Shown here in pieces: positions 13,378-64,000 of a DNA stretch of 64,000 nucleotides (positions within the stretch are counted from its first letter, which is position 1; each line of letters begins with the position of its first letter). The stretch comes from Bacteroidia bacterium (GTDB taxonomy: Bacteria; Bacteroidota; Bacteroidia; Bacteroidales; VadinHA17): contig JAPLDX010000068.1 in the NCBI GenBank assembly GCA_026391215.1, positions 1 to 64,000 on the forward strand. The letters are read 5' to 3'. Under the pieces are notes generated by a model. The model did not search any database. It was not told the DNA's origin and worked only from the letters and a program-made list of their open reading frames with translations. The translations under genes were made by a program, and so were the position numbers.

Positions 13378-13475
13378 ACCCCCCACCCCCCCTGAAGGGG
13401 GGCTATAAACCCATCCAGTTCTTATGTAGTATTTGCTTTGGGTTTTAACCCCCCTTCAGGGGGGCAGGGGGGTAC
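13378..13475. repeat. Inverted doublet of C/G-rich hairpin (REP-like) repeats
   Basis: Left arm ACCCCCCACCCCCCC-TGAA-GGGGGGCTATAAACCCA. Reverse complement of the right arm: GTACCCCCCTGCCCCCC-TGAA-GGGGGGTTAAAACCCA. Spacer about 25 nt. Confidence 0.85.
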
Positions 13476-31275: not shown

Positions 31276-31392
31276 CACGTACCCACCCCCTAGCCCCCTC
31301 CCTACTGCGTAAGGAGGGGGAATAAATTAATAATCAGCCACATAGCCCCCTTCCTTGCGTAGCAGGGAAGGGGGTTGGGGGATGGGTACATG
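31276..31392. repeat. 117-bp REPIN/MITE-like inverted doublet of hairpin repeats
   Basis: Left arm CACGTACCCACCCCCTAGCCCCCTCCCTAC-TGC-GTAAGGAGGGGG. Reverse complement of the right arm: CATGTACCCATCCCCCAACCCCCTTCCCTGC-TAC-GCAAGGAAGGGGG. AT-rich 25-nt spacer. Confidence 0.9.
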
Positions 31393-60120: not shown

Positions 60121-60831
60121 ATGTGTTTCTCGGCAGGAGCAAGCTTTACGGCAGGAGCAGTCATTTCAGCTATTGGTATTGCGACGGTTAAAGAGGTTCA
60201 AAAACCGTCTCAGTGGGTATTTGCCAGCATACCTTTGATTTTTGGAATTCAGCAAATTGCAGAAGGTTGTCTGTGGATGACATTACAGAATGGTGATTAT
60301 GCTGTCATTCAGAAAATCAGTACATATATTTTTCTACTGACGGCAGATGCTCTCTGGCCGGTAATAATTCCTCTTTCTGTCCTGTTATTGGAAGAAGATA
60401 GTAAAAGGCGCAAAATATTGCGGATTCTGCTATTTACGGGCATAATCTTAGCATTGTATTATGCATATTTCATAGTGTTTTTCAAAGTGACACCTCAGAT
60501 TCTGAATTGTCATATTTATTATGACACTTTTACCCCGGAATCTCTCATGATACCTGCTTTCTTGATTTACTTATTCGTAACCATCACATCCTTGTTTGTC
60601 TCAAGCACTAAAAATATGCATCTACTGGGTATTTTAATGTTTCTGTCATGTGTGGTTTCAGTTATTTTCTATACAATAAATACTACTTCGGTCTGGTGCT
60701 TTTTTGCGGCGGTTATCAGCGGTGTGATATATTGGATCATCCGGGTACCGCAGGAGGAGAACAGTCCGATCAGCCTCAGATTAATGAAGATTATATCTGA
60801 TAACAATCCCTGGAAAAGAAGATCAAACTAA
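60121..60831 (+). CDS. Multi-pass membrane protein, DUF6629-like
   Basis: Starts MCFSAGASF. P..FG.QQ..EG..W and SVWCFFAA motifs. About 7 TM segments. Confidence 0.7.
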   Translation: MCFSAGASFTAGAVISAIGIATVKEVQKPSQWVFASIPLIFGIQQIAEGCLWMTLQNGDYAVIQKISTYIFLLTADALWPVIIPLSVLLLEEDSKRRKILRILLFTGIILALYYAYFIVFFKVTPQILNCHIYYDTFTPESLMIPAFLIYLFVTITSLFVSSTKNMHLLGILMFLSCVVSVIFYTINTTSVWCFFAAVISGVIYWIIRVPQEENSPISLRLMKIISDNNPWKRRSN

Positions 60832-60838
60832 TCCTCAT

Positions 60839-62212
60839 TTAAAATCCGGTCACCTTCCATCCTTTCCGGTAATCTCGGCGAAGGTATTTATTAGCTTCAG
60901 GATAGTTTGTCACAGCCATTTTCCCGGCATTCCATTCCAGCAATGTATCCGGGACGCGGATTGCCACCGTACCAAGGAGAATTGCCTCTGTCATCGGTCC
61001 CGTCTGTGCGAAATGAGATTCAGTCTTAGGGCCGCCCAGGCAGGCAACTACAAAGCTGTGATAATGATTACCGGCTTCGAATTCAGGTATTTTATAATTT
61101 GCGAATTTACTTTCGGGTAACAATACAGGAAATTCATCATGCGGATTAAGCAGGGCTCCTTCAGTACCAATAAGCATTGCGGATTCAGCGGGATATTCTT
61201 TTCCCGCATATAAGTCACGTACTTCCGTGGGAGGATAAAACTCTCCATCGAACCATTCCAATGGAAGAACGTCAGAATCCGTTTTATCGTTTCCCGGAAA
61301 CATCCATGTTATATGATCACCCTGGGGCCAGTTATCAGTTCTTCTTTCAGGTGAATCCTTCCATGACTTCTGAACTTCGGCTATAACAGATATAGGTGGT
61401 TTCAATCCAATACCTTTCCAGACAGCATCAAATATATGGCATCCGATGTCGCCTGACCAGCCAGTTCCAAAGTCCTGCCATGCTCTCCATTTTGTCTGAT
61501 GATATATTTCGGGAGCATAAGGACGCATAGGTGCAGTGCCGATCCAGATGTCCCAGTTCAGATTTGCCGGAGCTGCCTGTCCCTGTGGAGGACGTGGTCC
61601 AAAAAGGCGGTAATTTTCTACGGCACCAGGGCGATTGGAACAGAGATATGCATGCTTTATCTTGCCAATGGCACCGTCTTTAATTAGCTGGACCGCTGTC
61701 AGGTCACCTTTTCTCGAGGCAATCTGAGTGCCAAGCTGGGTTATCACTCCATTCTTCACTGTTGCTTCTGTAAGGGCTCGAACCTCTGCCACATCATGAC
61801 ACATTGGTTTCTGGCAATAGACATGCTTTCCCATCCTGATAGCCATCATGGCAATCGGGAAGTGATTATGATCCGGTACAGTAACATTGACAGAATCAAT
61901 ATTATTCTCTTCTTTCCTGAGAAGCTCGCGCCAGTCGGAATAAGTACGGGCATCAGGAAGAATTTCAGAGGCCTTCTTCAGATTGTCAGCATCCACATCG
62001 CATATTGCGACGATCTGTACATTCGGATCCTCTTTGAATTTATTAAGGTCTGACCATCCCATCCCCCCGACTCCTATGCAGGCATGATTAAGCTTGCCGT
62101 TTGATGATGGGGCATTCCCTGAGCATCTGATTATGAGCGGTGCGCCAATTGCGGCAGTTGCAGCCGTTTGTATAAACTTCCTTCGTGATAATGAATTGTT
62201 ATGGTTTGTCAT
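60839..62212 (-). CDS. Tat-exported Gfo/Idh/MocA oxidoreductase
   Basis: Likely start ATG at 62212. LSRRKFI, IGVGGMG, PDHNH, HVYCQKP and DFGTGWSGDIGCHI. Confidence 0.9.
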   Translation of the reverse strand: MTNHNNSLSRRKFIQTAATAAIGAPLIIRCSGNAPSSNGKLNHACIGVGGMGWSDLNKFKEDPNVQIVAICDVDADNLKKASEILPDARTYSDWRELLRKEENNIDSVNVTVPDHNHFPIAMMAIRMGKHVYCQKPMCHDVAEVRALTEATVKNGVITQLGTQIASRKGDLTAVQLIKDGAIGKIKHAYLCSNRPGAVENYRLFGPRPPQGQAAPANLNWDIWIGTAPMRPYAPEIYHQTKWRAWQDFGTGWSGDIGCHIFDAVWKGIGLKPPISVIAEVQKSWKDSPERRTDNWPQGDHITWMFPGNDKTDSDVLPLEWFDGEFYPPTEVRDLYAGKEYPAESAMLIGTEGALLNPHDEFPVLLPESKFANYKIPEFEAGNHYHSFVVACLGGPKTESHFAQTGPMTEAILLGTVAIRVPDTLLEWNAGKMAVTNYPEANKYLRRDYRKGWKVTGF

Positions 62213-62278
62213 GGCCTGATGGATAATATTAAATGCTACATAAAATGCAAGTAATGCAAGATAAGAAATTTTGCAATT

Positions 62279-62865
62279 CATGTACTCACCCCCTTCCTTC
62301 GCTACGCTCAGGTTTTCCCCCTCTCTGCTGAAGCAAAGAGGGAGAAGGATTCACCTAATAATGTCGTAGATTTTGTATTTTTATATTGTGTTAAAAAAAT
62401 ATGTCTCAATCTAAGAAATTTGATATTAAAGGAATTAAGAAGCATGCTCAAGACCTGAGAAATAATATGACTGAATCTGAAAAACTATTGTGGAGAGAGC
62501 TTAAGGGAAGGAAACTATCAGGTTCTAAGTTTTTACGTCAGCACTATATACTTTATAAAGGCAATTTAACGAGATACAATTATTTTATTGCTGATTTTTA
62601 TTGTTATGCCCGGAAAGCTGTGATTGAACTTGATGGCCCGATTCATGATACTTCAGTCGAATATGATCAATTCAGAGATTCGGAATTGCAGGAACTGGGT
62701 TTTCATATTTTACATATCAAAAATGAAGAGCTATCAAATATAAAAGAAGTTCTTTGTAAAATCATTTTATTTCTTAATCGAATAAGCAAATAATCAACTA
62801 ATTACACGAACTTACTCCCCCCTCTTTGCTTCAGCAGAGAGGGGGGCTGAGGGGGTGAGTACGTG
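62279..62865. mobile_element. Candidate 587-bp mobile element: DUF559 gene enclosed by inverted REP-like terminal repeats
   Basis: Left arm CATGTACTCACCCCCT...CCCCCTCTCTGC-TGAA-GCAAAGAGGGAG. Reverse complement of the right arm: CACGTACTCACCCCCTCAGCCCCCCTCTCTGC-TGAA-GCAAAGAGGGGGG. Mobility is inferred. Confidence 0.6.
62401..62793 (+). CDS. DUF559 endonuclease-domain protein (Vsr-like fold)
   Basis: LRNNMTESEKLLWRELK, FLRQH, IADFYC, IELDGPIH, YDQFRD and GFHILHIKN. Confidence 0.92.
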   Translation: MSQSKKFDIKGIKKHAQDLRNNMTESEKLLWRELKGRKLSGSKFLRQHYILYKGNLTRYNYFIADFYCYARKAVIELDGPIHDTSVEYDQFRDSELQELGFHILHIKNEELSNIKEVLCKIILFLNRISK

Positions 62866-62871
62866 TTGTAC

Positions 62872-62900
62872 AAAACAAAAACCCCGCTTTTGGCGGGGTT
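62872..62900 (-). terminator. Intrinsic terminator of the 62952 gene
   Basis: AACCCCGC/GCGGGGTT stem followed on the minus strand by TTTGTTTT. Confidence 0.75.
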
Positions 62901-62951
62901 GCGAGTCTCAAAGACTCCTGGCACACATTATCTTATCTGCTATATGTTGCC

Positions 62952-63998
62952 TTATCTTATTCTATCATTTTCTTCAGGTTTTTCAGGTTTATCAGCTCGT
63001 CTGGTAACAGTTTCGGTTTTGGTCTCAGCCGGAGCACTTTTGCGTTCCGGCTGGCTTTCTGCAGGTCTGGAAACCTTGGGAGCTTCCTCTCTCTGAGCTG
63101 GTTCAGGTCTGCTGACGACTCTTTCAGCCGGCTCCGGCCTGGAGATCACCCTTTCCTGAACTGGTTCAGGTTCCCTTCTGGTCTCAACAGCCTTTTCAGA
63201 CGGTTCAGGCCTTGAAGCTGGTCTCTCATAACCGGTGTCAGCCGGTCTGCGAACCGGGGCAGAAGCTTCATCTGAAGAGGACTTCGTCACGGGCCTTTCC
63301 TCAACAGTGGTTGTTGACCTTCTTACATCTCCTGTATTCTGATCAGATGATGATTTTATTACAGGTCTATCATCAACAGTTGTGGTTGATCTGCGTGAGG
63401 TACCTGTGCTCTGACGGTTGGAGGGATCAGTAGCGCTCCTGCTGTTTGTAACATTATCTGAACGTCTGGTGCTGCCTGTGGTGTTACTCGTAGTTGCCTG
63501 GTCACGGGTTGACTGAGAGACTGACCTTCTGGTCTGGCTGATAACGGGAGTATTCTCCTGTGTCCTTTTTTCCTGATCAGGATGAGTTGAGGTGAAAAGA
63601 ACCTCGCCATCACGCCTCTGTTCAGGGTGTGAATAAGTGGATTTATATTTACCGTCATTGATGTTATGGTCAATTTGCGGTGAATGTGAACGTATCCCTG
63701 AGTAATAAAAGTCATTATATCCATGGTAGCGGGGATGATCCCAATGATGGTAATGATTGTAGTAATGATGGCACCAGTTATAATGATAACCGTAGTAGTA
63801 GTGCCAGTAGTATGGCTGCCATGGATCCCAGTAAGGAGGGTAATAACCCCAGTACCATGAAGAATGCCACATGACATAATCAGGGTAATACATGAATCTT
63901 ATCATCGGCCAGTCGGCTATTTCATAAAAATCAGTATAAACAATGGTTACATTGCTCTTACTGTTCTTCTTACCCAGGTAGCCGGGATTAGGAGTCTC
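62952..63998 (-). CDS. Partial (5'-truncated) hypothetical protein with a Tyr/Trp/His-rich segment and a repetitive disordered tail
   Basis: The frame stays open to the window edge (ETPNPGYLGKKNSKSNVTIVYTDFYEIADWPM...). Aromatic/His block followed by a 24-aa-period RR-anchored tail. Confidence 0.8.
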   Translation of the reverse strand, partial: ETPNPGYLGKKNSKSNVTIVYTDFYEIADWPMIRFMYYPDYVMWHSSWYWGYYPPYWDPWQPYYWHYYYGYHYNWCHHYYNHYHHWDHPRYHGYNDFYYSGIRSHSPQIDHNINDGKYKSTYSHPEQRRDGEVLFTSTHPDQEKRTQENTPVISQTRRSVSQSTRDQATTSNTTGSTRRSDNVTNSRSATDPSNRQSTGTSRRSTTTVDDRPVIKSSSDQNTGDVRRSTTTVEERPVTKSSSDEASAPVRRPADTGYERPASRPEPSEKAVETRREPEPVQERVISRPEPAERVVSRPEPAQREEAPKVSRPAESQPERKSAPAETKTETVTRRADKPEKPEENDRIR

Positions 63999-64000
63999 CT

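Follow-up and report, generated by a model that had tools for sequence, protein, structure and literature searches.

A DUF559 nuclease gene between inverted hairpin modules with a putative triplex code: a candidate mobile cassette related to BoxC/PIT/TM repeats

Introduction

The BoxC/PIT/TM repeats of bacterial genomes have been known for about thirty years, with neither an origin nor a partner assigned to them. These intrastrand triplex motifs are G/C-rich, high-copy and intergenic, consist of a pyrimidine, a purine and a purine-rich third-strand block in succession with short loops, and are often arranged in inverted ('palindromic') pairs and tied to local instability (Holder et al. 2015, PMC4666352). 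According to the same report, they occur in >260 genomes and number 23 in E. coli K-12, TM repeats fold into a triplex in vitro and mark unstable loci, and transposase or integrase remnants were 'never found' near the motifs; 'endonuclease', 'DUF' and 'ycjD' have no occurrence in its main text. Here we describe a 587-bp unit at positions 62279-62865 of a 64,000-nt stretch (the window) of contig JAPLDX010000068.1 of a Bacteroidia bacterium (GCA_026391215.1), in which a pair of inverted arms that resemble these motifs in block order, copy number and pairing encloses a DUF559 gene, whereas the main text of PMC4666352 reports no mobility or nuclease gene. The explanation that we prefer, with about even confidence, is that the unit is a mobile nuclease cassette with triplex-hairpin modules as its ends and with gene-less doublets as its derivatives.

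A previous reading of the window from its letters alone (the sequence-only reading) had proposed a system analogous to REPIN/RAYT. The anatomy bears this out, since in both systems a gene lies within inverted hairpin repeats, gene-less inverted doublets are dispersed and target duplications are missing, and the unit and its doublets have no link to a RAYT. A new type of REP did not hold up. In contrast to REPIN/RAYT systems, the protein here is a PD-(D/E)XK hydrolase and not an HUH Y1 transposase, the GTAG/CGTC tag is missing and the head is CAYGTACYCAYCCCC, four gene copies with a patchy occurrence among 24 congeners contrast with a single-copy, vertically inherited RAYT, and the arm module of the window is two-fold symmetric and predicted to be triplex-capable. 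The analogy is limited to anatomy because a Vsr-type hydrolase cannot itself join DNA.

In the catalytic fold of its modelled protein, the unit is like the I-Bth0305I/EDxHD homing endonucleases and Vsr. Unlike the former, it has no group I intron, no extra DNA-binding domain and no intein; the substrate of Vsr is a T.G mismatch, and here the mismatch lies within the element's own hairpins, with no neighbouring cytosine methyltransferase. Miniature inverted-repeat transposable elements are similar in being short inverted-repeat units made from longer ones by internal deletion, but no DDE-type transposase and no target duplication were found here, and the long form encodes only a small nuclease.

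Arms of the DUF559 unit fit a purine-motif triplex code

Analysis of the window confirmed the lone 130-aa DUF559 gene within inverted arms (62279-62347 and 62815-62865) that the sequence-only reading had described: the product of the open reading frame (ORF) matched PF04480 with E=1.2e-26 as its sole Pfam family, and the arms are complementary over 31 nt at 94% and 26 nt at 81% in a repeat search of the window. Each arm is laid out as a head (CAYGTACTCACCCCC), a linker and a G+C-rich hairpin with one mismatch (C.A as read on the C-rich strand, T.G on the G-rich one), which lies beside a 3-bp inner stem (TGC-loop-GCA) and a 4-nt loop; a head with an imperfect, C.A-mismatched hairpin had been described in the sequence-only reading and was found in both window arms. 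In metagenome contigs, the loose ends of other copies accumulate at 62278/62279 and 62866, in keeping with these boundaries, and the anatomy of the unit is well supported. As single-stranded DNA, the right arm has a predicted fold of −12.9 kcal/mol (z −3.1), and the prediction for the arms yields the hairpin only, with the head left unpaired. The motif GTACTCACCCCCT, searched with ≤2 mismatches, had 5 matches in the window against 0.87 expected, and 5 were reached in none of 100 shuffles. The earlier claim of three further intergenic sites held for two doublets, one from the same family and the other from a related one; the remaining motif matches (24066 and 40303) fall in apparently ordinary coding sequence with no hairpin, and were rejected as chance.

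Read on the G-rich strand, each arm is a succession of pyrimidine stem, loop, purine stem, linker and head. An antiparallel alignment of the head with the purine stem gives only G.G-C, A.A-T and T.A-T triads, numbering 10 in the right arm (4-nt linker; reversed-tail control, 1) and 10 and 11 in the doublet at 31 kb. Heads and stems vary together as mirror haplotypes, namely TCACC+TCT (31 arms), CCACC+TCC (22 arms), CCATC+TTCC (6 arms) and TCATC+TTCT (4 arms), and this well-supported mirror covariation covers 63 of the 74 parsed arms. The inner stem is compensatory, with TGC/GCA in 54 arms and TAC/GTA in 18, and the C.A mismatch was present in all 74, so that the mismatched hairpin is the constant feature it had been taken for. 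Such a mirror relation between head and stem goes beyond what copying can yield and fits a purine-motif triplex code instead. By contrast, the proposal of GTAC as a conserved foot fails: among congeners with the same gene subfamily, GAAC, GGAC or ATAC replace it, the heads diverging together with the protein, and it is the mirror relation of the head to the purine stem, a putative triplex code, that is conserved, not GTAC.

Genome-wide, 386 hairpins with an all-purine 3′ arm were found, 64 of which have ≥10 triads, a level that none attains with the tail reversed. Modules with ≥8 triads number 73, with 56 in this arm family and 13 in a second module family, which has its own covariation and flanks the DUF559 genes on contigs C109 and C64. 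Among mismatched stems the mismatch is T.G in 24 of 40, and it is mostly located 2-3 bp from the loop. Because head and purine stem match under the triplex code and co-vary, the arms are, judged by sequence, members of the described BoxC/PIT/TM intrastrand triplex motifs and not a new REP type. The triad rules, the stems of 6-15 nt and the short loops of that class are all found in the right arm and in the 31-kb doublet; the 23-nt linker of the left arm exceeds the 1-6-nt loop range of Holder et al. (PMC4666352).

The whole doublet also folds as a single long hairpin (−36 kcal/mol, z −6.0), and the orientation of the gene relative to the arm types varies by eye, as might be expected if the arms acted only at the level of RNA or expression, as terminators, stabilisers, processing stems or an inversion switch, with no enzyme-substrate link. 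We regard this as very improbable. At each end, only the DNA strand that runs outward obeys the triplex code, which cannot be that of one RNA because the outward strands at the two ends are opposite strands. Moreover, the majority of copies are gene-less, and an Rfam search yielded no family at the gathering threshold, with only sub-threshold matches to miRNA-precursor-like hairpins. Purine-motif triplexes do not form in RNA, and PIT elements are without promoter or terminator activity (PMC4666352).

The enclosed protein is predicted to be a Vsr-like nuclease

The window protein matched the NCBIfam DUF559 model below its equivalog cut-off, and its AlphaFold model had a predicted local distance difference test score of 85.5. 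With Foldseek, the nearest structure was that of another DUF559 protein (3hrl, E 4.7e-7), followed by the catalytic domain of the homing endonuclease I-Bth0305I (3r3p, E 3e-4), in agreement with the sequence-level search, and Vsr itself (1vsr) was a weak match (E 0.04). A Vsr-like catalytic core with conserved acidic and His residues is present, in that D65, E76, D78 and H82 together with an RQH motif are invariant in 14 proteins of the subfamily. Searches for other affiliations of the window subfamily gave only marginal PADLOC matches to defence systems (E about 0.003), only 2 phage records at 35-39% identity and 34 plasmid-collection records all below 60% identity, with no close relative on phages or plasmids. 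No cytosine-5 methyltransferase is among the immediate neighbours, which are a GFO/IDH/MocA oxidoreductase and a low-complexity protein.

The unit belongs to a dispersed family of doublets

The arm family was then counted in the whole 3.39-Mb, 135-contig assembly (G000, in which the window is contig C111). The core head has 86 exact occurrences and 129 with one mismatch, and pairing of convergent heads defined 49 head-to-head doublets and left 31 solitary heads, which provides the genome count of singlets and doublets that the sequence-only reading had called for. By size, 27 doublets are of 117-128 bp, 11 of 140-150 bp, five of 177-183 bp and three of 570-587 bp, with single doublets of 202, 212 and 268 bp. 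Only the 570-587-bp class is gene-bearing, all three members carrying DUF559, and gene-less doublets span 117-268 bp; a fourth DUF559 copy of the family is cut by a contig end, so that 4 of the 9 PF04480 matches of the genome fall within this arm family. Gene and arms thus form one unit of a dispersed family, as had been proposed, and this family structure is well supported. The doublets are intergenic, with 0 of 49 lying in a frame open for ≥100 aa on both sides, and their flanks are weakly AT-rich and only roughly symmetric.

Long and short forms have terminal inverted repeats in common, and some short forms are internal deletions of the long one. The 268-bp doublet C128:9210-9477 matches the window element over positions 1-69 and 429-584 and has kept about 90 nt from the 3′ end of the ORF, and doublets of 145-212 bp retain subterminal sequence of gene-bearing copies. 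Because of this retained sequence, gene-less doublets are at least partly internal-deletion derivatives. The gene copies on C29 and C3 differ at 2 of 174 coding nt and have unlike outer flanks, and therefore indicate recent copying to a second locus; the C29 copy has an in-frame TGA and is a nonsense copy. Linkers are 3-8 nt long in most copies, and insertions like the 23 nt in the left arm of the window were found at C128:9210 and C101:29933.

The main rival to a mobile cassette is that DUF559 is a free-standing homing gene, which cuts gene-less doublets near their centre and is copied into them via about 50 nt of arm homology, the doublets having arisen or spread through another agent or through host processes. 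Several observations speak for such an invasion of pre-existing doublets: the second-best structural match is a true homing endonuclease, the gene is present in only 4 of about 53 units, six genomes hold a few heads and no gene, elements differ by eye in which way the gene faces relative to the two arm types, and about 15 of the 31 solitary heads are, by eye, arms that stop at or before the hairpin loop and adjoin a complete arm, as if breaks had occurred within arms. Nevertheless, we consider homing unlikely, although it is the alternative to be taken most seriously, as the C128 and mid-size doublets derive from gene-bearing units, the spacers of short doublets look alike by eye (unaligned), which suggests whole-unit copying, and no other candidate mobiliser is tied to the doublets, the Y1 genes having repeats of their own. 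Of the seven Y1/RAYT-like (PF01797) matches in the genome, none is beside heads of the window arm family. A RAYT was rejected as the mobiliser, with the PF01797 genes on at least C31, C101, C100 and C62 sitting among other palindromes. Whichever of the two is right, a mobile cassette or homing into doublets, DUF559 would be the missing protein partner of the BoxC/PIT/TM repeats.

These Y1 genes (C31:258-764, C101:10655-11089, C100:45450-45897 and one on C62) each lie amid copies of their own distinct palindromic repeat, and the genome thus contains ordinary REP/RAYT-type systems side by side with its DUF559 families. The truncated arms join a complete arm in the same orientation, for example at C8:13733-13967, C29:10569-11175, C29:25130-25259 and C16:1446-2200; on C16 the outer partial arms are symmetric about a gene-bearing element, giving an onion-like nested palindrome. 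Another element of about 55 nt (…GCAAACCGGCTCTTCACTAAAATAGCCCACCGGGCTATTT…) is found within hairpins of arms at C38:81764, C80:13740-13919, C118:30785-30961 and C132:5362-5541, and this insertion accounts for the doublets of 177-183 bp and suggests that another small repeat targets the arms. By eye, a unit pairs two types of arm, told apart by a long T-rich linker in one and a short CAG/CAA linker in the other, and the orientation of the gene relative to these types in C111, C16, L038 and L013 differs from that in C29 and L011. The interior looks as if inverted between the arms, in keeping with a report that predicted inversion targets are enriched in DUF559 (PMC9881135).

In-frame cassettes are inserted in protein genes

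A scan of 150 Bacteroidota genomes placed 14 of its 30 best PF04480 matches in open frames of 790-1420 aa, all of which were translated and 12 of which were scanned with Pfam. Translation and Pfam ruled out a reading of these frames as helicase-DUF559 fusions. The inserts consist of DUF559 flanked by short Pro/Gly-rich peptides that the modules encode, and they were found in leucyl-tRNA synthetase (LeuRS) between domains at two sites, in MetH between the B12 cap and the B12-binding domain in three genomes, in HsdR between HSDR_N and the ATPase, and in acetyl-CoA synthetase (Acs), HsdM, an MmeI-like methylase and Lhr. The MetH, LeuRS and Acs orthologues of the window genome are uninterrupted at the cassette sites, by which the inserts were delimited to about 140-160 aa, and the insertion of whole units into otherwise uninterrupted genes is well supported. 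The 'fusion' architectures of LeuRS, MetH, HsdR and Acs are insertions and not designed multi-domain proteins, which bears on annotation.

Each in-gene insert opens with a minus-strand module and closes with a plus-strand module. The two end modules are unlike in sequence, each having its own match between stem and third strand, so it is the predicted fold that is conserved at in-gene ends, not an inverted repeat. The ends are translatable because pure pyrimidine and purine runs hold no stop codon in any frame. The in-gene modules bear in two directions on homing into pre-existing doublets: ends that are not mutual inverted repeats would not be placed by arm homology alone, but gene-less modules also occur in frame in HsdR at DUF559-free sites, as homing would have it.

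Other palindromic elements are known in frame, the Rickettsia palindromic elements being an example, and the relatives of the cassette likewise are stop-free and inserted in frame in protein genes. As with inteins bearing homing endonucleases, a nuclease domain is inserted in frame into essential genes (LeuRS, MetH, Acs), where it occupies conserved or inter-domain sites. In contrast to inteins, the inserts contain DUF559 only, with no Hint or splicing domain detected by Pfam, and the insert is presumably kept in the protein. In the HsdR genes of three Bacteroidota genomes (L059, L061 and L063), 3-6 tandem modules with a 78-bp period stand beside the in-frame DUF559 and translate as repeats of PSTTGRGAGGEG plus 14 residues, and the same proteins contain single modules in frame at three further sites.

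DUF559 genes are associated with modules across bacteria

For the subfamily of the window protein, arms were found at every locus examined, namely at 10 fetched loci from 9 congeners or relatives (including one of another family) and at seven loci from Rikenellaceae/Bacteroidales metagenome-assembled genomes (L010-L015 and L026; L014 is without the right arm). More distant DUF559 genes, from other Bacteroidota and from metagenome-assembled genomes of Spirochaetes, Saccharibacteria and Gracilibacteria, have arms of other sequence and the same design. Statistically, of 32 DUF559 loci, 22 had a flank inverted-repeat score above the 99th percentile of 510 small control ORFs and 15 scored above every control, the top control itself being a RAYT; a check on enrichment of inverted arms near DUF559 genes had been suggested in the sequence-only reading. 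In a set of 69 partly non-independent DUF559 loci, an outward module of ≥8 triads is present on at least one side in 53 and on both sides in 26, and outward modules occur on 79 of 138 sides versus inward modules on 22. The association across phyla is well supported, and no publication linking DUF559 to flanking repeats was found in the literature searched.

The association extends to E. coli, in which ycjD, annotated as DUF559, has two 10-triad modules, overlapping and after its stop codon. A clean empty site was sought in E. coli and not obtained: about 2080 genomes are without ycjD, and in the one genome inspected other genes follow sapF. Records of Synechocystis, Picosynechococcus, Deinococcus and Azospirillum also have TM-like modules beside DUF559 genes, two of these records having been read by eye with stems <6 bp or long linkers. 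In congeners, tandem arrays were seen, with head fragments at a 23-nt period in G014:C1 (L034) and whole arms at a period of about 100-160 bp in G061:C26:61218-63005 and G045:C14:175028-175879.

RAYTs are thought to be domesticated, and by parallel DUF559 could be a domesticated caretaker, that is, a host Vsr-like repair nuclease that clears TM triplex or hairpin obstacles and is kept nearby by co-selection. The Vsr-like fold together with T.G in 24 of the 40 mismatched stems would suit this role, as would the fixed sapF-ycjD-fabI locus, found in 3346 of 5426 complete E. coli genomes, the instability of TM loci (PMC4666352) and the SOS response that a Caulobacter DUF559 protein triggers and that is tied to a cytosine methyltransferase (PMC12907096). 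We nevertheless find a caretaker improbable, given a gene that is multi-copy and patchy among congeners, with the nonsense copy on C29 and near-identical copies at different loci, and given in-frame insertions in essential genes, which are typical of selfish elements.

A candidate mechanism for a mobile nuclease cassette

In the mechanism that we propose, the unit would be a selfish cassette with one Vsr/I-Bth0305I-like nuclease gene and two outward-facing end modules as its cis sites. The strand running 5′→3′ outward would fold into pyrimidine arm, loop and purine arm, usually with one T.G near the loop, and the G-rich head would fold back onto this hairpin as the third strand of a purine-motif triplex. 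The nuclease would recognise the folded, mismatched module when the arms are single-stranded or extruded, and then nick it, and host replication and recombination could process the break such that the cassette is copied, lost, inverted or relocated. Gene-less doublets (117-268 bp) would be its non-autonomous relatives, arisen partly by internal deletion, and would be equivalent to BoxC/PIT/TM repeats. That the nuclease acts on its own folded arms we infer from the constant association, the recurrent single stem mismatch and the Vsr-like fold; the cut site and the route into new sites we infer as well.

The distribution of the family among relatives is patchy. Exact heads number 64, 37 and 28 in three congeners that also hold an arm-flanked gene and 1-6 in six further congeners, and none were found in 15 of 24 congeners or in 16 genomes of other families; such counts understate related families because heads diverge. 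In eleven relatives the orthologous oxidoreductase gene has no adjoining arm, and one of these, G066, retains both flanking genes without the element, with 338 bp between the matched segments versus 1140 bp here. Gain or loss was therefore observed between species and not within a population: in contigs of 4 metagenome runs, covering region 60500-64000, no empty-site allele (a 62278-62866 joint) was found, which shows little because contigs drop rare variants. As to the empty sites at issue in the sequence-only reading, one relative without the element was found, and no empty-site allele in these contigs. Two apparent skips in the contigs, 62295->62818 and 62348->62790 (the latter with 18 foreign letters), were rejected, as they come from other family copies.

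A number of points weigh against a mobile cassette. A PD-(D/E)XK hydrolase is incapable of strand transfer and could not by itself account for entry into new sites. Neither a target-site duplication nor a consistent target was found at the 49 doublets, and besides the missing empty-site joint, the metagenome contigs show the element at the same site in a ~97% variant strain. The window copy itself may be inactive, because its left arm has the 23-nt linker and a partly decayed outer stem (3′ stem). Among the 69 DUF559 loci, 16 have no outward module of ≥8 triads and inward modules occupy 22 of 138 sides, and the loci are partly non-independent in that ten come from one Gracilibacteria metagenome-assembled genome, the HsdR loci L059, L061 and L063 are orthologues and one subfamily is genus-wide. 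Six congeners with 1-6 heads are without the subfamily gene, and, conversely, G002, G008, G014, G016, G023 and G024, together with G029 from another family, have the gene and no exact head, because their heads have diverged. Finally, dimethyl sulfate footprinting saw no stable triplex in vivo (Holder et al., PMC4666352).

Triplex repeats occur in hundreds of bacterial genomes, E. coli K-12 among them, with no origin, mobiliser or function reported. The present link supplies a candidate enzyme for these repeats and a candidate substrate for DUF559, a large family of 'unknown function', and E. coli K-12 holds both partners, ycjD and 23 TM copies. As a tentative extension, which we put forward as possible and somewhat short of probable, the cassettes may be a previously unrecognised, bacteria-wide mobile class with triplex-clamped mismatched hairpin ends and a Vsr-like structure-specific nuclease as sole protein; BoxC/PIT/TM repeats would be their non-autonomous offspring, and the stop-free Pro/Gly ends would be a third way, besides introns and inteins, into essential genes, as a tolerated loop. 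If the nuclease reads a folded DNA shape and not a sequence, it would recognise its target on a principle new among selfish elements, and the protein would possibly be a useful structure-specific nicking enzyme.

Features of the window and minor observations

Feature coordinates are collected in Table 1. The open frame of the nuclease gene extends to just 5′ of the ATG, with 132 aa from stop to stop.

Table 1. Coordinates of the DUF559 unit and of related doublets in the window
Feature	Position	Strand	Remark
Left arm head CATGTACTCACCCCC	62279..62293	-	Complement is the putative G-rich third-strand segment of the left module
23-nt insertion in left arm linker, between head and hairpin	62294..62316		
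Left arm hairpin CCCCCTCT-C-TGC tgaa GCA-A-AGAGGG	62317..62342		C.A on +, T.G on -
AT-rich leader, arm to start codon	62343..62400	+	Presumed own promoter and ribosome-binding site region
DUF559 / Vsr-like nuclease gene, 130 aa	62401..62793	+	D65, E76, D78 and H82 intact
Right arm hairpin CCCCCCTCT-T-TGC ttca GCA-G-AGAGGGGGG	62817..62846	+	T.G mismatch on this strand
Right arm linker CTGA and head GGGGGTGAGTACGTG	62847..62865	+	10 canonical purine-motif triplets against the purine stem
Gene-less 117-bp doublet, same family	31276..31392		Two outward-facing modules, 10 and 11 triplets
Gene-less doublet, related family (CCCCCC-loop-GGGGGG-linker-GGGGGG)	13378..13475		Resembles repeats around the DUF559 gene on C88

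On its 3′ side, the element is followed by a terminator-like hairpin (CCCCGC…GCGGGG, 62869-62905), which is also found in the element-free relative (L043, G066). About 7-11 nt on either side of the element (TGCAATT and TTGTACAAAAC) have no counterpart in G066 and are weakly inverted, and the true ends may therefore lie a few bases beyond the CAYGTAC heads. The adjoining 317-aa ORF (62952-63905, minus strand) had no Pfam match, and its product has a His/Tyr/Trp-rich N-terminal part followed by a long low-complexity tail rich in Ser, Thr, Arg and Pro.

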